Source of the DNA: Acinetobacter phage vB_AbaM_ME3
Sequence record: KU935715.1
DNA length: 64,000 nucleotides
Reading direction: 5' to 3' (one strand)
In this document: positions 9,789 to 63,525 of the stretch, one piece after another
How the letters are laid out: the number at the start of each line of letters is the position of its first letter
Numbering within the stretch: position 1 is the first letter of the stretch
The notes under the pieces: generated by a model
Told to the model about the DNA's origin: nothing
Databases searched by the model: none
What the model saw: only the letters and a program-made list of their open reading frames with translations
Position numbers and translations under genes: made by a program

Positions 9789-10232
9789 TCAGGCAATAAT
9801 CCGTTCAATAGTATCTCTTAAGTTTATTTCAACATCAGGATAAAATTTTCTCATTTCTTGTCTTAATTTATATAATCGTCTTTTTGGATTAATACTTAAA
9901 CCATATTTATAATAAATACTATTATTAATTTTTATTTCAAATTCGTATAAAAAGATAGTTTCTAAAGGTCTACGTTGAACTGTAGTTTTATTTAAAAATC
10001 CACTTTGGTTATTTCTAGAGCATGTAGGACAATTACTTCTAGATTGTAAATAGTCATTAGTGCGTGGTGTCCATGTGTTAGAACATTTTTTGCATTCTAA
10101 TTTTATAAATTTAGCATACTCTTGATAACTTCTAGTTAATAAAATGTATAAATCATCTTGGATAACTTTAGAAAGAATTGTAGAATATTTTAATAAATTA
10201 TAAAAATTAGATTTTTGAACTAATGCGTACAT
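9789..10232 (-). CDS. T5orf172/GIY-YIG-like domain protein with Zn ribbon
   Basis: CKKCSNTW...CPTCSRN Cys pairs; YYKYGLSINPKRRLYKL resembles the T5orf172 (MUG113) GIY-YIG-like motif. Confidence 0.45.
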   Translation of the reverse strand: MYALVQKSNFYNLLKYSTILSKVIQDDLYILLTRSYQEYAKFIKLECKKCSNTWTPRTNDYLQSRSNCPTCSRNNQSGFLNKTTVQRRPLETIFLYEFEIKINNSIYYKYGLSINPKRRLYKLRQEMRKFYPDVEINLRDTIERIIA

Positions 10233-10630
10233 GAACTAACTCCCTTAACAAAATCATGAAATAAGGGAAAATAAATATTACCACATGTCTTATGAACTAG
10301 AGCTAATGATATTTTAGTAGTAATTTTAGATAAATCTTGATAGATATATTCATACTCTGAAAAAGTTGTATCAATATAAAGTTTTAAATCCTTTTCTGAT
10401 TTAAAACGTCTTGATTTTTCATTACAAACGCCTGACGTAAGTTTACAATCATTACAGAATTTAGGCTTATTATAAATCAAATTAAACCAATTACTTATAA
10501 CTTCTTTTTGACAAGTATTACAAATTACTAGTATTTTAGATTTGACATTTTTATAAGGTTCTACTTCTCTAATAAATGAAAAACAATTTTCACTTTGAAT
10601 AATCATTTTATATTTTTGAATTTGAAACAA
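10220..10630 (-). CDS. hypothetical Cys-rich (Zn-ribbon) protein
   Basis: CNTCQKE...CNDCK...CNEK...C motifs. Confidence 0.5.
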   Translation of the reverse strand: MFQIQKYKMIIQSENCFSFIREVEPYKNVKSKILVICNTCQKEVISNWFNLIYNKPKFCNDCKLTSGVCNEKSRRFKSEKDLKLYIDTTFSEYEYIYQDLSKITTKISLALVHKTCGNIYFPLFHDFVKGVSSCTH

Positions 10631-11453
10631 ATCTACTCCTCTATATTTCTATAGATGTTGAGACTATATCTTCATCCTATTAAATAGGAGTTTTATGTTT
10701 CCCTTTAATCCGTTCGGAACCACTTGGCGGTAGACCTAAATTTAATTTAGGAATTACTAGTCGTTGAACCTTCCTCTATATTACTAGAGGCTTGGCTGCT
10801 GATTGTCCATTACAAAGAATATATTAATATATTCATCTTCTTTATTTTCAAACATTCACGCTCATCTTTACAGATCACGTTGTAGTTAAAGAAGCTTTAG
10901 GAGTTTCCAGCAATTAATAAAATTTTGTCGACTACATTACTGTAGAAGGTGTCAATCTATTATTTAACACTACTGAAGAAAGCGCTCATATTGACGTGTG
11001 ACACCGTCATAATTGTTAACAAGAGTTTCTTTAATTATCTCTTTTCATTTCCTATCTAAAGTTTGGAAATAGTTCAGACTATCTAATCACCTTCAACAAC
11101 AAATATTTGCTTTGTTAAGGTGTTGGGCGCTCGTGGAGAGGTTATTGTTATCTTACTCACTCTCTAGTCGTTTAACGTTCTTGTCTCTTAATTAAGATAA
11201 GACAAGCTTCGCACAGTGTCGCCTACTAAGCTTCCACTGTTAGCTACAATATATAAATATAATAATGATACAGACTATTGGAATCTAACCAATTCATCCT
11301 AAGTTTACAAAGATGTTTCCCAACATTCTAAGCTCTTGGGGCGTTCACCTTTCACCAAGTCTGCATTACGAATTATCTCGGATTGGTAGGCCTTATGGGA
11401 TTCTAACCCATGATCTCACAAGTTATGAGCTTGGTGCTTTAGAACGCTAAGCT

Positions 11454-11666: not shown

Positions 11667-12101
11667 TTAATGGATATCCATAACTACAACTAAATCTGGA
11701 CTTGAATAAATCTCAGGAGTATTAGTATAGTTAATGGTTGCTGCGCTTACTTCTTGTTTAGGTACATGAATGAAGAAATCTTTTTTAATTTTATCCCAAA
11801 CAATAGCACAATAGACTTCAGATTTAATTGTCTTACTAATATTACGATAAAGAACAATTACTTGTTGTAATAATCCAGTAGGAATTTTTGGAATTTCAGA
11901 ATGATCAGGAGTAAAAGAAGTTTCACATTCTTTTGTCAAACCTAAAGCTTTGAAATCTTTTAATTCAGTAGGGATTACAAATGTACCAATAGGAGACTTA
12001 CGTTGCTGAAAAATACCATTAGCAAAGATTGCATTATGGATATTCTTACCTGATTCTGTATCAAATTTTTCAACAGCAAAAGAGTTAAATAAATCAAACA
12101 T
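11667..12101 (-). CDS. hypothetical protein
   Basis: ORF track; tiled. Confidence 0.5.
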   Translation of the reverse strand: MFDLFNSFAVEKFDTESGKNIHNAIFANGIFQQRKSPIGTFVIPTELKDFKALGLTKECETSFTPDHSEIPKIPTGLLQQVIVLYRNISKTIKSEVYCAIVWDKIKKDFFIHVPKQEVSAATINYTNTPEIYSSPDLVVVMDIH

Positions 12102-32994: not shown

Positions 32995-33066
32995 TTGAGA
33001 AAATCAGATTCGAACTGATCACGGCCAGAAATTATTCTAGTGCTCTACCAACTGAGCTATTTCACA
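32995..33066 (-). tRNA. tRNA-like gene with canonical D-arm and T-arm but a 6-nt anticodon loop (possible pseudo- or noncanonical tRNA)
   Basis: Minus strand: TGTGAAA-TA-GCTC-AGTTGGTA-GAGC-A-CTAGA-ATAATT-TCTGG-CCGTG-ATCAG-TTCGAAT-CTGAT-TTTCTCA-A; no encoded CCA. Confidence 0.5.
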
Positions 33067-35452: not shown

Positions 35453-35535
35453 TCACAAGAGGATGGATTCGAACCACCGACAACAGTAGGGATTTTACTG
35501 CCTACAATACTCTACCGACTGAGCTACTCTGCAAT
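35453..35535 (-). tRNA. tRNA-like element with canonical D-arm (GTAGCTCAGTCGGTAGAG) and T-arm (GGTGG-TTCGAAT-CCATC) but an expanded anticodon region and a weak acceptor stem
   Basis: Hand parse of the minus strand; GTAGG...CCTAC stem encloses a 10-nt loop; acceptor pairs at only ~4 of 7 positions. Confidence 0.4.
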
Positions 35536-36905
35536 TTCCACTCTCTTATTATTTAGATGGTAAGAATATAAGTTAGTGTTAAGACGTTGATACATTAGGT
35601 ATTACCCTAACGCCAAGAGTTGAACTTGTTAAAAACCTTCTGTAACCCAACAACTATCTTTATTACTGGACAGTAATCATCTGAGATTATTAACCTATAC
35701 CGTATTCTTACCTCTAAATAATAATTAAAAGACATCTAATAACCTAACTTCAGATAAGGGTACTTACTCGATTATCATGAGACTCTACTAAATGTCTTTT
35801 AATTATTATTTAAAAGGTGTGAGGTACAACTCTCACAATGAACCATGTAGCCATTTTGGTTAGCGTCAAGCTGTATACAGCTTAGTTTCTCTAGTCAGCC
35901 CGCTTTAGGTTGTCCCTAATTGTGTGATATCAACACTACCATTTTTCTATCTTACGATAACACCAATGATCAAGTGCTTGTGGTACTAGAAGTCATTAAG
36001 GTGAATATGCCTTTATAGATCATACCAAATCTACAGGCCCATCACTCCCTTCAAATTTTATTACGCCACATCCTGTTTGGACTTACACCGTGTTGGATGT
36101 TATTTATCGGTAGAATTTGAGCCATTAACCAGAGCGCATTTATTAACTTATACTTTCATATAAGATTAGACCTTTTAGAGTGTCCTGATTTCTCAAGCTG
36201 AACTCTATTACCATCTCATATAAGTTGTCAGACTTATACTAACTACTTTTAGAATTACTCCTAATTTCGAGTGTCTCTACTATACAAAGGATAAATCCTT
36301 CTTAGCTATTATAACCATATGAAATAGAACCTCACTTAGAATTATAATATTTAGGTAATTGAGGAAAAACATGAGAATATAAAAGCATACTGCCATAATA
36401 TACGAGCCGTTAAGCCATCAGAATCGAACTGAGTCCTCTTTTATACCTCGATGCCCTTCATTATCGAAAAAGGGCTTTGGCACAATTGTGTTGTGCATCT
36501 CGTATCACTTGAGGTAATAACTCTTGGAATCTAGCAGAGGAGCGACCTCTCTTATTTTATATACCGATTGGATTCTTGTCTCGGTTTGTGGGTCTATTAC
36601 ATGTCATCGTTTCTCAGTTGACAGTGAGGGATCTACAAAAATTGGAATAGACTGACAATGGAGGTAATCATTAATCCCCTATTACAGAGATTAATCCTAT
36701 AGAATGCCTAAGAATTTCAGTTGCAATCTTACATTCAAAAGGACTTATATCAATTAGTATATTGGACAATATGTTCTGGAGACGGATTAGGCGTCTCACT
36801 CTTTTACTAAAAATTAGTAAACGCTTTTAGCCTCGGATTAAGAGACATTCCACTACATTTTAAGCTACAGACCTCAATACTTCCAATCATACTAAATTCT
36901 ATACA

Positions 36906-38049: not shown

Positions 38050-38613
38050 TTAAAAATATTTAATAAATTTACTTAAGTGTTTCTTTTTTATTTTAAAAGA
38101 AGTACTTTCAATTCCACCAAACATTTGACAATTAGCTAGTATCTCTGCCCAAGCAGTTAAATACAAACTAAATCCTATCTCTGATTGAATTAGTTCTTGT
38201 GCTTTTTCATCACTTGCTTTTAATATATGGAAATCCATATCATGTTTAACAAGATCATGACCTATTAAGAGATGAGGAAAGAGTTGTTTATATATCTCAT
38301 ATGACACTTGTGCATGATTGGGAAACTGTTGTTTACCTTCTTCATTTACAATTCTACAATAAGGCTTTCCTAAATCATGATAGATTTGATAATGCTTCAT
38401 TGTTTCATAATCTAAGAGAGTAATCCAATTCTTTTTATATACTTCTATAAGGGATTCAGGAACACCTTCAGGTACTACTCCTTTTTCTAAAGAAAGTAAT
38501 AGCTTTAAATATTCATTATTAACCATTAAACCATGTTGATACATATTGACATTTTCAAACTGATAACAGTTCTTCATATCTTTAAGTACCTTATCAAAAG
38601 TTAAGATCTCCAT
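38050..38613 (-). CDS. HD-domain phosphohydrolase
   Basis: H...HD motif: QIYHDLGKPY. Confidence 0.6.
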   Translation of the reverse strand: MEILTFDKVLKDMKNCYQFENVNMYQHGLMVNNEYLKLLLSLEKGVVPEGVPESLIEVYKKNWITLLDYETMKHYQIYHDLGKPYCRIVNEEGKQQFPNHAQVSYEIYKQLFPHLLIGHDLVKHDMDFHILKASDEKAQELIQSEIGFSLYLTAWAEILANCQMFGGIESTSFKIKKKHLSKFIKYF

Positions 38614-38900
38614 AACTGATATCTCCTCAATAATATTCTTTGGTCTTGAGTAAGAGGTTCAGTTCCGAACGCTGTGAGACCATAGTCCCAAGAAGGTTCG
38701 AAGAAAGATATAGTTTTGATACCTTTAGTTTCTAAATCTTTTATAGCTTTCTCTAATTGATATTGATTTTTAACACCAATCACTACTAAAGAACTAGGTT
38801 CAGATTGATCTCTGTCACCTAAATATATTCCTGCTTCTAAAGCAGCATGGCCAGCTTGAACTATTTGTTGTTCAACTGGAATATCTCTTCTAACAAACAC
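38601..38900 (-). CDS. hypothetical protein
   Basis: ORF track. Confidence 0.5.
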   Translation of the reverse strand: MFVRRDIPVEQQIVQAGHAALEAGIYLGDRDQSEPSSLVVIGVKNQYQLEKAIKDLETKGIKTISFFEPSWDYGLTAFGTEPLTQDQRILLRRYQLWRS

Positions 38901-38978: not shown

Positions 38979-39197
38979 TTACTTATTCCAAGTCTTAAAC
39001 AGTTTCAACACTTGAGGTTTAACTGAGTAAACAAAAGTACCATTAACAAACTTAGCATTAGTTAATTCATTCCAAAGCATAGTACTACTAAGATTATTAT
39101 TAACCATAAAATTATATAATTTTAAAACTTCCATATGTTCAGGAAGTTCACCATCTTTTTTAATTTGAGCTTTAATTCTGTTTAATACTTTACTCAT
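38979..39197 (-). CDS. small protein, paralog of 29512..29736
   Basis: Shared MSKVLNRIKAQIKKDGELPEHMEVLKLYNFM core. Confidence 0.55.
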   Translation of the reverse strand: MSKVLNRIKAQIKKDGELPEHMEVLKLYNFMVNNNLSSTMLWNELTNAKFVNGTFVYSVKPQVLKLFKTWNK

Positions 39198-39347
39198 GGT
39201 ACCTCCTGTTTAAGATACTGGCGTTGCCAACTGGGAGTCTAACCCTAATAGAACTTCAATATTATAACCATGTCTAGAATATTATAATATCGTCTACAGC
39301 CTTTCTCCTTCGAATGGAGCTGTGCTACGTACACTATGACAACATTG

Positions 39348-39421
39348 TGGTCCAAAATCTGAGATTCGAACTCAGACGCAGGGTTTTAGGGACCCCTGTG
39401 CTACCATTACACCAATTCTGG
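39348..39421 (-). tRNA. tRNA with encoded 3' CCA; anticodon loop CCCUAAA gives a predicted CUA (amber-reading) anticodon with unusual C33
   Basis: Minus strand: CCAGAAT-TG-GTGT-AATGGTA-GCAC-A-GGGGT-CCCTAAA-ACCCT-GCGT-CTGAG-TTCGAAT-CTCAG-ATTTTGG-A-CCA (74 nt, every stem pairs). Confidence 0.65.
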
Positions 39422-39426
39422 AAAGG

Positions 39427-39639
39427 TTACTTCTCAGATGCAGCTAATATACCACAACAAAGAATTAAAGCTACAAACAAACTACCACCAAATTGGTAGA
39501 ATGGTGTAGCATAAGAAGGAGTAAAATAGTTCGTAAAAGCAATAGCAACAATAGCACTAATAACTACTAGTAAAACCATAGCTATGATTATGCCTACACC
39601 TATTAACATACCTTTAAGAAATTTCAATATGATTTTCAT
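39427..39639 (-). CDS. small 2-TM membrane protein (holin-like topology)
   Basis: Two hydrophobic helices in 70 aa. Confidence 0.45.
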   Translation of the reverse strand: MKIILKFLKGMLIGVGIIIAMVLLVVISAIVAIAFTNYFTPSYATPFYQFGGSLFVALILCCGILAASEK

Positions 39640-40900: not shown

Positions 40901-41167
40901 TTATTTTTCATAAGGAATAAATTTCCAACGATCTAACTTTCCATAATATTGCAACTGATGATTCTCTAGAATATAGACAAAGCCAGAATCTTCTTTTTCA
41001 CATTTATTTAAAAAAGATTGAATAGTTTTTGAACTTATAACTTTAGAAGGAATCTTACAATAATGAGCATTGTCATAATAACGATAGAAATGTAATTGTG
41101 GTTTTGAATAAATAACTTCATCATAAACACAATCTAACATTTCACTAAATAAGACAAATTTAAACAT
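40901..41167 (-). CDS. hypothetical protein
   Basis: ORF track. Confidence 0.5.
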   Translation of the reverse strand: MFKFVLFSEMLDCVYDEVIYSKPQLHFYRYYDNAHYCKIPSKVISSKTIQSFLNKCEKEDSGFVYILENHQLQYYGKLDRWKFIPYEK

Positions 41168-41822
41168 TTACATTACTCAGTTTTTCTATTTCATTCATAA
41201 CTCTACTAGGTGGAAGAGTTAGTACTAATTTAAAGTATTTTCTACAAGCTTTTAAAGTTTTAGGATGAATACTAAAATTCAATCTAGAAGCGAACCTATA
41301 GACTCTAAGAATTCTAAGATGATCTTCCAAAACCCTCTCTTCTGCTTTGCCATTAAAACGTATTACCTTATTGTTAAGATCATTCAACCCTTGTTTAGTT
41401 GGATCAAGTAATGTATTAGAAAATGGATCATAGTAGAGAGAATTAATAGTAATATCACGTCTAATAGAATCTGTTTCAATTGTTCCTATTGAAACAGTTT
41501 CAGGTCTTCTTCCGTCTGTATAAGTACCATCTTTACGGAACAAAGCAACTTCATATTGCTTTCCATGTTTAGAAGCAATTAACACTAAGAAAGACTTTCC
41601 AGCTTCATTAATATCCCAACCATTTTCTAGTAAAGATGATTCAATATTATCCAAGTTTCCATCTGTTACTAAATCAAAATCGTTAGGAATATCACCTAAT
41701 AATAAATCTCTAACACAACCACCAACTAAATATGTATTAGTGGAATGATTATTAATAATGAGAAAAAGTTGAAGAAGAGTTAAATCAGAGACAATAGGAC
41801 GAGTATTCATATTATTGACCAA
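41160..41822 (-). CDS. Pol-beta-superfamily nucleotidyltransferase, CCA-adding enzyme/poly(A) polymerase head-domain-like (220 aa, no body/tail domains)
   Basis: LVGGCVRDLLLG...DFDLVT (the GGxVRD...DxD motif of class II CCA-adding enzymes). Confidence 0.6.
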   Translation of the reverse strand: MVNNMNTRPIVSDLTLLQLFLIINNHSTNTYLVGGCVRDLLLGDIPNDFDLVTDGNLDNIESSLLENGWDINEAGKSFLVLIASKHGKQYEVALFRKDGTYTDGRRPETVSIGTIETDSIRRDITINSLYYDPFSNTLLDPTKQGLNDLNNKVIRFNGKAEERVLEDHLRILRVYRFASRLNFSIHPKTLKACRKYFKLVLTLPPSRVMNEIEKLSNVNV

Positions 41823-45076: not shown

Positions 45077-46522
45077 TTACTCTTTAACTAATGCATAACG
45101 ATCTACTAATAGCGTTTCTTTCATAATAGCTTCAGGTGAAAACTCATCTAAAGTATTAGAACAAACTGCTTTTAATAGAGAAGGAGAAAAGCTAGATAAT
45201 AAACAAGCACCTGATTCATCATATTTAACAGGAAAGTTATTATTAGAAGGAGTGTTAAGAACCCAAAAGATTAATTTAGGACATTTTAATCCTGCTTCTT
45301 TAAACTTAACTTGAGCATCAACATATGCTGAGCTTTCACGAGAATTAAAATTAAACTGAGTGTCACTGAAGAAAACTAAATATTCAGGTAATTGATCTGA
45401 AGAAATATTATTAGAAACTACTAGATCTAATAGTAGTTTAAAGACACCTTCAACATTTGTACTATAACCAACTTGACTTTGAGCAATAAGATCATAACGC
45501 TCTTTTAAAGTTTTACAATCTTTGAGATCAACAAAAGAAGGATGATCTGCAAATGTAGTTACAAGGTTTTTAAATGGACCTTCAATACGTTCACTGATGT
45601 AAGCACCTAAAGTAATTGCAATATGTTTATATGTTGCATTACCTACAGCAGGAGCTTCCATTGAACCACTTAAATCAACTACAGGAAGAATCGATAAACC
45701 TTCTTTAATTAAATTAGGAAAGCTATTCCACTGAGCTTCTACAACAGGATTAGGTTCGAAATAAGGAGAATAACGAGACCCTAATATTGAATAAACTTCA
45801 GAAATTTCATGAAGAAATAATGTAGACGAATTTAAAGTTGCAGTTCCCTCACTCACTTTATTAATAAAATCATTAAAACGATCTGAGTCTTTAGACAAGA
45901 ATGTATTTTTATAACGATTAAAAGCTTTAGAAGGAACTGTACTATAATCTATTTCAGCGATACGATGCTCACACAATAAACGTTCAGTAACTTTAGCTCG
46001 TAAAGGGACAATTAACTGTCTTAATTCTTTAGGAGTGACCTTAAGATAAGAACGTAACATAGATGCAACATTGCCTTTCAAAGGTAACCACTTTGCAACT
46101 AATATCTGAGTTTCAGGATTTTTCAAATGTTCAGCTAATAGTCGAATAATCTTTTTCTTAATACGAAGATCAACATCACATTCTACTAAATTAAATAAAT
46201 CAGGATAATACCCTAACTCTACAATTTTAGATAAAAGATTAGTTTTTAAAAATACATCAATATCTATATGAGCTAAATGAATCATACAGAGATTAAATGA
46301 ATTACGAATACCTTTACCTTGTCTAATATCACGAGAATTCAAAAGATTACGAATTGCTAAATCTTTGTCTTCTAGATAAGCTTTTCGAAAATCTAAAATA
46401 GCTTCTTGAGAATAGTTAGGATCACCTAATTTAACAAAGAAATCTAAATTATGAGAAGCAGTACTAGAATAAGCTACTGCCCCATTAGTGGTTTGTGTTT
46501 TTAAAGCTGTTGCTGCAAACAT
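45077..46522 (-). CDS. vWA-domain protein, possibly a Ro60/TROVE-like RNA-binding protein
   Basis: C-terminal-half MIDAS-like motif VVDLSGSMEAP; 481 aa with a long N-terminal domain, matching the Ro60 TROVE+vWA layout. Confidence 0.4.
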   Translation of the reverse strand: MFAATALKTQTTNGAVAYSSTASHNLDFFVKLGDPNYSQEAILDFRKAYLEDKDLAIRNLLNSRDIRQGKGIRNSFNLCMIHLAHIDIDVFLKTNLLSKIVELGYYPDLFNLVECDVDLRIKKKIIRLLAEHLKNPETQILVAKWLPLKGNVASMLRSYLKVTPKELRQLIVPLRAKVTERLLCEHRIAEIDYSTVPSKAFNRYKNTFLSKDSDRFNDFINKVSEGTATLNSSTLFLHEISEVYSILGSRYSPYFEPNPVVEAQWNSFPNLIKEGLSILPVVDLSGSMEAPAVGNATYKHIAITLGAYISERIEGPFKNLVTTFADHPSFVDLKDCKTLKERYDLIAQSQVGYSTNVEGVFKLLLDLVVSNNISSDQLPEYLVFFSDTQFNFNSRESSAYVDAQVKFKEAGLKCPKLIFWVLNTPSNNNFPVKYDESGACLLSSFSPSLLKAVCSNTLDEFSPEAIMKETLLVDRYALVKE

Positions 46523-54232: not shown

Positions 54233-54646
54233 TTATTTTTTATTAACTAATTGTGAAATTGTTTTAGCATCGTATTGAGATACATGGTAATTAGCTTTAA
54301 ACCAGTTCATAACAAATGCAGTTTTATTACCTTTATCTTCAGACCAATTTCCACACACTCTTTCAACAATTTCAATTGTTTTTTCAGGAGATAATGGTTG
54401 AGGTAATAAACTATTTAAAATTTCTAATTCTTCACGTGCAACTTCATTTAAAGGAGAGACACTTAATACTTGTAAAGCTGAATCACGAAACTTTTTTAAA
54501 GTATCTAAAGTAATAGTATTTCTATCTGCTTTTACTTTCTTTTCGGCTTGTTGAACTTCACCTAAAATAGTTGTAAACAGATTTGTATGAACTTTATTCT
54601 TATTTTTACGAGCTTCTAATGATTTTTCAGTAATTGTTTGAAACAT
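54233..54646 (-). CDS. GatB/YqeY-domain protein
   Basis: EELEILNSLLPQPLSPEKTIEIV and the C-terminal FVMNWFKANY...AKTISQLV match the YqeY pattern. Confidence 0.6.
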   Translation of the reverse strand: MFQTITEKSLEARKNKNKVHTNLFTTILGEVQQAEKKVKADRNTITLDTLKKFRDSALQVLSVSPLNEVAREELEILNSLLPQPLSPEKTIEIVERVCGNWSEDKGNKTAFVMNWFKANYHVSQYDAKTISQLVNKK

Positions 54647-54696
54647 TTTATATCCAATAAAAAAGCCTCTACTATAATTTAGTAGAGGCTTTTATT

Positions 54697-56851: not shown

Positions 56852-57040
56852 CTATTCACTTTTAAATTGCTTAATCATGTATGTGTTATGTTCATTCAAG
56901 AAATCATTCATAATTTGTAGTGTTTCTACATCTTGAGTTAACTTTTGATTTTCTTTAGTTAACTCGTCACATTTTTGATTAAGAACATAAATCGCTGCTA
57001 ATAATAAAAGAATAACAGAGATAACAAGACTAACCAGCAT
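56852..57040 (-). CDS. single-pass membrane peptide with a coiled-coil tail
   Basis: MLVSLVISVILLLLAAIYVL TM. Confidence 0.5.
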   Translation of the reverse strand: MLVSLVISVILLLLAAIYVLNQKCDELTKENQKLTQDVETLQIMNDFLNEHNTYMIKQFKSE

Positions 57041-59647: not shown

Positions 59648-60139
59648 TTAATAAGAGTTAAACACATCTACACTACCATCTGGCTTAATGTGGTATGTCT
59701 CTTTTTTATTTTTTATTGAGTAATTTAATGTATACCATGTCCCACTTAATTTAGGAGATGGGTCTTCGTTTTCTAAAGTAATAGCAATCATAATAGAAGA
59801 TTCATTAACAATATCTCTATTACGAGCAAAGTAAGTTTTATCTTCTCTTACTTGATCACTTTTAAAATCACCTACCAATTTCTTACTGACTGGTGGATGA
59901 GCAACAACAGTAAAGTCATAAAGATCTTTTACTAGTTTTGCAGCTTGAGTATCAACTCCAATACAATCTCCTTGATGAAAGGTATCAAGCATTGGATATC
60001 GTTCTAGTAGTTTAGCTACAACAGAGAGGAAAGCCTTCTGTTGTAGCTTATTCATACCTTGACGAGTACCTGTGATACCTAAATCAGTAATCTTCACCTT
60101 GGATACCATAAGTAACTCCATTGATATTTGAAACACCAT
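59648..60139 (-). CDS. hypothetical protein, possibly SLOG/DprA-like Rossmann fold
   Basis: GITGTRQG...HQGDCIGVD; weak. Confidence 0.4.
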   Translation of the reverse strand: MVFQISMELLMVSKVKITDLGITGTRQGMNKLQQKAFLSVVAKLLERYPMLDTFHQGDCIGVDTQAAKLVKDLYDFTVVAHPPVSKKLVGDFKSDQVREDKTYFARNRDIVNESSIMIAITLENEDPSPKLSGTWYTLNYSIKNKKETYHIKPDGSVDVFNSY

Positions 60140-61762: not shown

Positions 61763-62254
61763 TTAACGAACATAAAAGAAAGCTATAAGAAGACAAATAC
61801 AAATAACTAATATAACTGCTAGAATATTTGTATAGTCTTTAGGCTTATCTTTTTCCATTTTAAGTTTAGCTTTAGCCTGACACTTATTCCAAATTTCTTG
61901 ATCTCTCACATGACAATCATATACATAATCAAAGAAATTACGGTTGTTTGTAAAAGCTTGAGAAAGATTTCTAAAAAGGTTTTCTTCTGTGTATCCCGTT
62001 TGAACTGTTGTAGTTAAAGCTTGATTAACAGATACTACAAGAGAATCAGGAATTTTATGGTCATTATAATATGAAGCAAATCCATATTTATAACGTAACC
62101 ACCAATATCCCATATGTCTAACTTGTAAAGCATTTAATTGTTTAAAAACTTTTGTATGACATGCAACTATAGTTTTAGCTGAAGGATTTGTTTTGCAGTA
62201 ATGTAAATACTGTTCATGCCAGCTATCTCTTAATTCTTCTTCAGTTAGCATCAT
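61763..62254 (-). CDS. C-terminally membrane-anchored protein
   Basis: C-terminal TM ILAVILVICICLLIAFFYV. Confidence 0.5.
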   Translation of the reverse strand: MMLTEEELRDSWHEQYLHYCKTNPSAKTIVACHTKVFKQLNALQVRHMGYWWLRYKYGFASYYNDHKIPDSLVVSVNQALTTTVQTGYTEENLFRNLSQAFTNNRNFFDYVYDCHVRDQEIWNKCQAKAKLKMEKDKPKDYTNILAVILVICICLLIAFFYVR

Positions 62255-63112: not shown

Positions 63113-63525
63113 GAGATTTCCTTAAAACTTAAGTCGTTATTAAATAAAACAACTCGGATAGCGACAATATGAGGAACTGCACCCATTGAATTTGAATTGC
63201 AAAGGTCTGTATCAACATCCCACAATCCTGTTAATCCTTTCGTATCAAGGATCTCTTGATAACGATTAATTAAACTACGATCAATTAGATTACATTCTTC
63301 ATCAATAGTAGGATGATACTCAATTGTAATTTCTTCTAAAATCTTAGAGTACACATCTGAAGGTTGCCAAGTTCCATCTATATAGACATGCTGTTGTTCA
63401 TTTTCCTTGGCAATGAAGATTGTTCCATACTTATCAGCACATAAACAATGAGTTGCATATTTCCAAGGCTTTTTATTCATGTCATCAGTGATAAGCATAA
63501 TGCACCTATTGAGATTTAGGAACAT
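63109..63525 (-). CDS. hypothetical protein
   Basis: ORF track. Confidence 0.5.
   Translation of the reverse strand: MFLNLNRCIMLITDDMNKKPWKYATHCLCADKYGTIFIAKENEQQHVYIDGTWQPSDVYSKILEEITIEYHPTIDEECNLIDRSLINRYQEILDTKGLTGLWDVDTDLCNSNSMGAVPHIVAIRVVLFNNDLSFKEIS

Follow-up and report, generated by a model that had tools for sequence, protein, structure and literature searches.

A C33-bearing tRNA with a CUA anticodon in Acinetobacter phage vB_AbaM_ME3: a putative amber suppressor from a family conserved in related large phages

The tRNA gene and its genomic setting

The stretch of Acinetobacter phage vB_AbaM_ME3 (KU935715.1) analyzed here, 64,000 nucleotides long and hereafter called the window, has a GC content of about 30% and carries 131 of its 134 predicted genes on the minus strand. 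Its phage origin is evident from PHROG matches to a Dda-like helicase and a DNA polymerase and from Pfam matches to PhoH, T5orf172 and a CCA-adding enzyme. The polymerase gene is a fragment. Other genes code for DHFR, thioredoxin, a YqeY-domain protein, NADAR and several phosphoesterases, and the best matches in phage collections are to jumbo phages, with protein identities of 35% or less. This gene content and these matches mark the window as early/metabolic DNA from a large phage, one distantly related to the jumbo phages.

Within it lies a tRNA gene with the anticodon CUA (Table 1). ARAGORN, run on the whole window, reported the anticodon as cta with exactly these ends, and Infernal agrees on the register: the Rfam model RF00005 matches 39351..39421 on the minus strand from its first position to its last (1-71 of 71) and scores 54.7 bits, where the gathering threshold is 29, with E=5e-9 for the 64-kb window. 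In RNA sense, the 5' half reads CCAGAAU-UG-GUGU-AAUGGUA-GCAC-A-GGGGU-CCCUAAA-ACCCU and the 3' half, after ACCCU, reads GCGU-CUGAG-UUCGAAU-CUCAG-AUUUUGG-A-CCA. All four stems of the cloverleaf are paired, with G4-U69, U13-G22 and G27-U43 as wobble pairs, and they enclose a 7-nt D-loop, a 4-nt variable loop and a UUCGAAU T-loop. The tertiary nucleotides U8, A14, G18-G19 and the TTC of the T-loop (54-56) are all present, and are invariant across the alignment of seven tRNAs considered below. Folding of the single sequence by minimum free energy did not recover the D-arm (z=-0.8), as is usual for tRNAs. As in an amber suppressor, the anticodon is CUA and sits in a 7-nt loop whose position 37 is a purine; in place of the U33 of RF00005-type tRNAs it has a C. 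A preliminary description of this DNA had already proposed a well-formed tRNA with a CUA anticodon, a C for the near-universal U33, a TTCGAAT T-loop and an encoded CCA, and this structural reading stands in full. It had missed the minus strand, the Gln-type body and the conserved family within which C33 is a derived, lineage-specific state. Its suggestion of a suppressor that acts on late genes elsewhere may still hold, but the one that the tRNA might signal stop-codon recoding fares poorly against the data presented below.

Other identities of this tRNA were considered and rejected. An AAA anticodon, with U35 as the U-turn base, was discarded on the basis of loop geometry. The name tRNA-Pyl is ARAGORN's default for every CUA anticodon; genuine tRNA-Pyl is marked by a short D-loop without G18-G19, a 3-nt variable loop, a non-canonical T-loop and accompanying pylS/pylBCD genes. 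This identity was rejected for the window tRNA on account of its G18-G19, its canonical D- and T-loops and the sizes of its D-loop (7 nt) and variable loop (4 nt); no pyl genes were detected among the window ORFs scanned against Pfam and PHROGs. An initiator-like role, which C1, C33 and an anticodon stem rich in G-C pairs had brought to mind, was likewise rejected, as the 1-72 pair is formed and the relatives lack the three G-C pairs.

Table 1. Features of the 64-kb window at and around the CUA tRNA, with other elements mentioned in the text
Feature	Position	Strand	Description	Basis or remark
tRNA gene, anticodon CUA	39348..39421	(-)	74 nt with encoded CCA	ARAGORN and Rfam
Anticodon loop	39385..39391	(-)	CCCUAAA, 7 nt (C32 C33 C34 U35 A36 A37 A38)	Sequence in Infernal and ARAGORN register
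Anticodon	39387..39389	(-)	CUA, complementary to UAG	ARAGORN
C33	39390	(-)	G on the plus strand; in place of near-universal U33	Sequence
Discriminator A73 and encoded CCA 3' end	39348..39351	(-)	CCA itself at 39348..39350	Sequence
Hydrophobic ORF	39427..39639	(-)	70 aa; ends 5 nt upstream of the tRNA	Gene call in Logan contig L084/L091
Terminator-like hairpin	39499..39482		Within the 70-aa ORF	
Spacer, tRNA to next gene	39198..39347	(-)	150 nt; two TTATAATATT (-10-like) boxes	
ORF downstream of the tRNA	38979..39197	(-)	72 aa	Query used for relatives
PTH2-like ORF	38601..38900	(-)		Pfam PTH2 E=0.048, below cut-off
HD-like ORF	38050..38613	(-)		Pfam HD E=0.016, below cut-off
tRNA nucleotidyltransferase (CCA-adding enzyme family)	41160..41822	(-)		Pfam PolyA_pol E=4e-31, PolyA_pol_RNAbd
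Free-standing YqeY-domain protein	54236..54691	(-)	15 kb from the CUA tRNA	Pfam, 37 bits (cut-off 27)
Aberrant tRNA-like gene	11267..11365	(-)	99 nt, beside tRNA-Met	
Aberrant tRNA-like gene	32995..33066	(-)	Good cloverleaf; 6-nt anticodon loop AUAAUU	Rfam, 45 bits; ARAGORN 'tRNA-???', 2-nt anticodon
Aberrant tRNA-like gene	35454..35532	(-)	D- and T-arms good; acceptor stem imperfect	Rfam only, 30 bits, barely over threshold; ARAGORN silent
Group I intron	10639..10975	(-)	Full length	Rfam RF00028, 81 bits
ORFs downstream of the intron	10220..10630, 9789..10232		Rich in Cys-X2-Cys	
Element shared with Klebsiella phages	36063..36139		77 nt	Megablast

The neighborhood of the tRNA is rich in genes for tRNA metabolism, among them that of the CCA-adding enzyme at a distance of 1.7 kb. 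In the contig L010, a single ORF of 297 aa takes the place of the PTH2-like and HD-like ORFs as a fusion of the two, and their homologs occur in many jumbo phages. Comparison with the relative L094 reveals that the spacer that separates the tRNA from the 72-aa ORF is 89% identical, including a perfect block of about 90 nt, whereas the tRNA reaches no more than 78%; the spacer, with its -10-like boxes, probably serves the downstream genes as a promoter or other regulatory region. The spacer also has a CUCC-AUUCGAA-GGAG hairpin. For a 481-aa ORF at 45077..46522 (PHROG 'RNA-binding protein'), an identity as an RtcB ligase was rejected, as its Pfam matches are to DUF7788/DUF2828.

Several elements elsewhere in the window deserve mention in their own right. 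Neither a host ORF nor tRNA halves are obvious in the flanks of the group I intron, and about 290 nt upstream of it are non-coding; a guess that the Cys-rich ORFs downstream of it are homing-endonuclease/T5orf172-like found no support in a Pfam scan of 10220..10606. The 77-nt element at 36063..36139, which is not a tRNA according to either ARAGORN or Rfam, is 87% identical to unannotated sequence in the Klebsiella jumbo-type phages KP13-26, KP2025 and FKP3, the sole megablast matches of the region. Finally, five independent Logan contigs of this phage lineage, from different samples, all break at one and the same point near 63471. This point lies some 1.2 kb upstream of the gene at 61763..62254, and a repeat, the end of the genome or a hypervariable junction may be located there.

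The window holds five tRNA genes by ARAGORN's count. The canonical tRNA-Met and tRNA-Ser encode CCA, while three aberrant tRNA-like genes do not; canonical tRNAs are far fewer here than in the relative L087, which has 15. The first of the aberrant genes, beside tRNA-Met, has a copy in L094 (664..762) that is 84% identical, and ARAGORN assigns the two different 'anticodons', reading the window gene as Leu(tag) and the L094 copy as Gln(ttg). In both copies the better fold is a CCCAA/UUGGG stem with a 12-nt loop, and both lack CCA and fail Rfam; by these sequence features the element is a conserved, non-canonical tRNA-like one. A 6-nt anticodon loop, as in the second, recurs in three tRNAs with otherwise good cloverleaves in the tRNA cluster of L102, an IMG/VR phage contig unrelated to the window phage (11318..11393, 11398..11473 and 11707..11777, two of them with an encoded CCA), so that such tRNAs look like a recurring class and not a one-off defect. 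In the third, the anticodon arm is expanded to GUAGG, the 9-nt CAGUAAAAU and CCUAC.

The CUA tRNA family and its position 33

Relatives were reached via homologs of the genes that neighbor the tRNA. Four of them have a CUA tRNA at the syntenic locus (L086 8032..8105, L087 8481..8554, L093 1403..1476 and L094 1929..2002), and all of these have in common C1-G72, A73, an encoded CCA and loops of 7 nt in the D-arm and 4 nt in the variable region, with GGACCA as the 3' end common to the family. The CUA anticodon is retained in all four at overall tRNA identities to the window tRNA of 55-97%, and the stems of these syntenic homologs differ by compensatory changes. We aligned seven CUA tRNAs of identical architecture, with the caveat that they had been picked as tRNAs beforehand: 94.6% of the pair cells hold standard pairs, as opposed to 37-56% in slid controls, and double changes are seen at 17 of the 21 pairs. 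Throughout, C32, C34, U35, A36, A37 and A38 are invariant. Since the anticodon stays invariant amid compensatory change in the stems, it is under selection, and this argues for UAG decoding over a role as a tRNA-like decoy. The earlier suggestion of a nonfunctional or regulatory tRNA-like RNA is accordingly disfavored by the covariation within the family, by the invariant CUA-A37-A38 and by the purifying selection on the C33 form that is considered below.

The locus itself is variable. The HD-like proteins of L087 and L088/L089 are identical, yet L087 has a CUA tRNA, with an HNH endonuclease gene inserted alongside it, where the other two have an aberrant one. The latter is a 76-nt class-I tRNA (L088 9248..9323, L089 755..830) that ARAGORN calls Leu(aag) and in which Infernal leaves 12 unpaired nucleotides in the anticodon arm (UUCCCCUAAGUU), one too many; its anticodon loop may be the 8-nt CCCCUAAG, with CUA inside. 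In the more distant relatives L095-L098, no CUA tRNA was found within 10 kb. With the locus variable or empty among relatives, the suppressor looks dispensable.

With regard to the amino acid carried, U35 is the main anticodon determinant for GlnRS, and A36-A37-A38 is both the context of tRNAs that read codons starting with U and a MiaA substrate motif. A scan of genomes with the core of the D- and T-arms retrieved 30 bacterial tRNAs, 27 of them tRNA-Gln(UUG), from Bacteroidales, Opitutales and Victivallaceae, with the loop sizes and the A73 of the window tRNA. A corresponding scan of metagenomes, with the D-arm and then a C[C/U]CUAAA loop, yielded 42 stretches, of which ARAGORN called 37 as CUA tRNAs, all with Gln-type U1...A72 ends; the tRNA-Gln of the phage contig L102 has the same type of D-arm. 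By sequence, then, the body of the window tRNA is of the Gln type, and glutamine is most likely the amino acid that it would insert, because U35 is present in a body of this type. However, the weak first pair of tRNA-Gln (U1-A72 or A1-U72) is replaced by C1-G72 in the window tRNA and its family, which renders the glutamine identity uncertain. By the identity rules of E. coli, Pro or Lys would be possible. In L087 the C1-G72 pair is also that of the phage's tRNA-Arg and tRNA-Pro. Among recoded phages, glutamine is the sole amino acid on record for TAG (10.1101/2021.08.26.457843).

Two side observations concern Gln-type tRNAs. First, a class-II-like Gln-type CUA suppressor of 88-90 nt occurs at about 30 metagenome loci (L012-L052), mostly from rumen-type JGI samples and on contigs of up to 167 kb; these tRNAs have the Gln-type acceptor (U1...A72) and D-arm, a long stem-forming variable arm (AGCCCUCUGAAGGCGUAAG; for example, L017 2240..2327 and L014 5658..5747) and, in all cases, U33. 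Second, the window encodes a free-standing YqeY-domain protein. YqeY is of the type of tRNA-binding domain that forms the C-terminus of GatB, a subunit of the tRNA-Gln amidotransferase, and to find it in company with a Gln-type suppressor is intriguing, although the two genes are 15 kb apart.

Position 33 sets the window tRNA apart. U33 is found in 130 of the 135 distinct tRNAs from all the loci compared, which makes C33 rare. U33 is also the state of the CUA tRNAs of L086, L087, L094, L092 and L010, and of all 37 ARAGORN-called CUA tRNAs among the metagenome matches. That C33 is no assembly error follows from L084, an independent assembly with an identical tRNA, C33 included, in a 4.77-kb context of 99.35% identity (27 mismatches). 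As the family members outside this lineage carry U33, we regard C33 as a derived, lineage-specific state within the phage CUA tRNA family. It is kept in L093, where the tRNA is 72/74 identical, with both substitutions in loops, against flanks of about 86.5% identity: substitutions affect 29 of 223 positions in the adjoining 72-aa gene and 21.8% of those in the spacer, as opposed to 2 of 74 in the tRNA (Fisher p=0.014; binomial P(<=2)=0.0024). So few changes in the tRNA, set against such diverged flanks, point to the C33 form being maintained under constraint, that is, purifying selection, across this divergence.

C33 is without the N3-H that the canonical U-turn uses, and decoding could hence suffer badly. 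Reportedly, however, a study of 1983 described U33 as dispensable for amber suppression: in a yeast suppressor with U33 replaced, suppression is said to have been lowered but not lost. On the strength of that result, the decoder is expected to be weakened and not dead, and C33 probably lowers the efficiency of decoding without abolishing it.

Other work bears on what a C at this position might bring. C33 is an anti-determinant for both the bacterial and the yeast t6A enzymes (PMC8887486), and changes in the anticodon loops of phage tRNAs have been proposed to evade anticodon nucleases (PMC10264068). At least one tRNase cleaves between C32 and U33, and CdiA-CT(EC536) is reported to cleave tRNA-Ile(GAU) there (PMC11724271). 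We also observed C33 in a tRNA-Ile(GAU) of phage XacN1 (AP018399.1, 46609..46684; loop CCGAUAA) and in a tRNA of L088 (13974..14058) that has the same loop and GAU anticodon on an 85-nt class-II-like body. It is conceivable, but in our estimate unlikely, that C33 is adaptive in an elongator-type suppressor, either hiding the loop from a U33-dependent host nuclease or modification enzyme or setting UAG read-through at a low level. Were this true, the C33 of these two GAU tRNAs would speak for a general, previously undescribed phage strategy at position 33.

Stop codons and readings of the locus

Within the 64-kb window, and in the regions of the relatives that were read, TAG is an ordinary stop codon and the genetic code is the standard one. 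The 134 predicted genes end in TAA (98), TGA (22) or TAG (14), that is, mostly in TAA or TGA, as had been noted before; TAG is the stop of 10% of them. The coding fraction under code 11 is 0.89, ORFs gain less in length if TAG is read as sense than if TGA is, and no in-frame TAG was found in the window's genes. The one long same-frame ORF pair that is split by TAG (56852..56854) has TAA as its orthologous stop in L001, a relative at 82-88%, and the gene at 59648, with a TAA stop in the window, ends in TAG there. The relatives tell a similar story, in that those with canonical U33 suppressors likewise use TAG stops. A six-frame search of all related loci, dominated by off-frame matches of near-identical sequences, found TAG opposite a sense codon in no divergent homolog pair among the matches listed. 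Pfam and PHROG scans of about 48 window ORFs, which included the check for a release-factor gene proposed in the preliminary description, revealed neither a release factor (RF2) nor an aminoacyl-tRNA synthetase (GlnRS). None of the marks of code 15, namely in-frame TAG in conserved genes, depletion of TAG stops and RF2 or synthetase genes, was thus found in the window.

These observations bear most directly on a code switch, in which late genes for structural or lysis proteins, located beyond the window, would have in-frame TAG read as Gln, a partial code 15 enabled by the early tRNA. A model of early suppressors and late recoding, with precedents of TAG-to-Gln reassignment in crAss-like, Lak and other phages, has been put forward (10.1101/2021.08.26.457843; PMC13037316), and the position of our tRNA in an early region of standard code is just what this model (Borges et al.) predicts. 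The low GC content and the Gln-type body are also in keeping with it, as is the conservation of CUA across divergent relatives, which implies that UAG decoding is under selection. Nevertheless, we consider such a switch rather unlikely. TAG stops are not depleted, either in the window or in the suppressor-carrying L087 (6/38 genes) and L102 (5/19 long ORFs); TAG and TAA interchange at two orthologous stops in L001; and the read-through extensions past TAG are no shorter than those past other stops (MWU p=0.50). Neither RF2 nor GlnRS was found in the window, as stated above, the near-identical L087 and L088/L089 differ in possession of a CUA tRNA, and a suppressor with C33 would be an odd choice for an essential decoder. 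Further, the standard code holds in 40 kb around L010/L100/L101 and 17 kb of L102, stretches of suppressor-carrying IMG/VR contigs in which there are no structural genes.

On balance, we favor the reading that the gene encodes a functional phage amber suppressor, one that probably inserts glutamine, is probably attenuated and belongs to a family conserved at this locus in related large phages. The tRNA would be transcribed together with the early and middle genes, matured with its encoded CCA and then charged by a host synthetase, whereupon it would compete with RF1 at UAG codons. A single transition from U33 to C would have arisen in the lineage and since been kept by selection, leaving a weak suppressor. 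As UAG is an ordinary stop in the available 64 kb, the targets may lie outside the window, or they may be low-level read-through products. Against this reading stand the harm that C33 could do to decoding, the C1-G72 pair with regard to glutamine, the apparent dispensability of the suppressor among relatives, the absence from the window of any UAG found to need decoding and the three aberrant tRNA-like genes, which could mean that tRNAs are eroding in this phage.

Such erosion is the essence of the view that the tRNA is a relic, a suppressor from an ancestor in which U33C was the first step of inactivation and which now contributes nothing to translation. The C at a near-invariant position would fit this, as would the aberrant state of other tRNA-like genes in the window, the small complement of canonical tRNAs relative to L087, the variable or empty locus in other relatives and the lack of a target TAG in the window. 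A relic, however, would hardly be expected to persist in its C33 form across flank divergence of about 13-22% with just 2 loop substitutions per 74 nt, or to keep its stems, anticodon, A37, A38 and CCA all intact, and the 54.7-bit score and encoded CCA distinguish it from the aberrant tRNA-likes; we therefore think it quite unlikely that the tRNA is such a relic. Very improbable is an account of the locus in which C33 was adopted for resistance to a U33-requiring nuclease or modification enzyme, or to tune suppression down to what a phage with TAG stops in its own genes can tolerate: the nuclease-evasion proposal (PMC10264068), cleavage at C32/U33 (PMC11724271), the t6A anti-determinant (PMC8887486), the recurrence of C33 in the GAU tRNAs of XacN1 and L088, the constraint on the C33 form and the abundance of tRNA-metabolism genes nearby are all compatible with it, but the host has no equivalent of a suppressor whose loss the phage would have to make good, neither a nuclease nor a defense context was identified, the U33 relatives show similar usage of TAG stops, and the idea is wholly inferential.

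Suppressor tRNAs of phages are already known; what the putative weak suppressor described here adds is a conserved syntenic family and an uncommon, apparently maintained C33. Phage suppressors have been proposed as a switch for stop-codon recoding, and their presence in phages of standard code, such as XacN1, is still puzzling. In this respect the locus constitutes a natural experiment, with U33, C33 or an aberrant tRNA at one site in close relatives, and it poses the questions of how much decoding is left in a natural C33 tRNA and whether changes at position 33 of phage tRNAs are adaptive. If the late genes hold in-frame TAG, the window would document a recoded lineage beyond the gut phages. 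For practical annotation, the evidence at hand teaches that the presence of a CUA tRNA by itself is no ground for switching to code 15.

Comparison with known systems

Among known tRNAs with a CUA anticodon, tRNA-Pyl resembles the window tRNA in that anticodon only. Cytoplasmic initiator tRNA-Met of multicellular eukaryotes is the one well-known class to which C33 is natural (PMC8887486), and its loop CCCAUAA starts, like the CCCUAAA of the window, with C32-C33-C34; however, its anticodon is CAU, whereas the window tRNA is paired at 1-72 and its relatives lack the G-C triplet at 29-31/39-41. Other parallels are found in Gln-type tRNAs. The bacterial tRNA-Gln(UUG) equals the window tRNA in the D-arm (GGUGUAAUGGUAGCACA), the T-arm core, the 7-nt D-loop, the 4-nt variable loop and A73, but it has U1-A72 and the loop UUUUGGU, in contrast to the C1-G72, the unrelated acceptor stem and the CCCUAAA of the window tRNA. 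Similarly, E. coli supE (glnV) is a Gln-type tRNA with a UAG-reading anticodon; yet it is a host tRNA with a single point mutation in the anticodon, while the window tRNA, with its A37-A38, C1-G72 and C33, belongs to a diverged family carried by phages.

At the level of whole systems, the window shares with the code 15 phages (crAss-like, Lak; Borges et al.) a CUA tRNA, low GC, a location compatible with the standard code and the expectation of glutamine. Those phages have in-frame TAG in their structural and lysis genes and sometimes RF2; in the window TAG is a normal stop, no release factor was found and the tRNA has C33. The reassignments seen in phages are TAG-to-Gln and TGA-to-Trp only, and the acquisition of a suppressor can precede recoding (10.1101/2021.08.26.457843). 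XacN1, in turn, is a jumbo phage of standard code with two CUA tRNAs whose read-through targets were not identifiable (PMC5852040). Its tRNA-Sup(CUA) genes (AP018399.1, 36047..36122 and 36130..36205) differ from the window tRNA in having G1-C72, an 8-nt D-loop on a GCUC/GAGC stem, 5 nt in the variable loop and the canonical anticodon loop CUCUAAA, with U33. Although the two phages are only distantly related, both are large, both use the standard code (in the case of the window, in the region covered), neither yielded identifiable read-through targets, both have a CUA tRNA with an encoded CCA amid genes for tRNAs and tRNA processing, and XacN1 carries a homolog of the very HD-like gene that adjoins the window tRNA.
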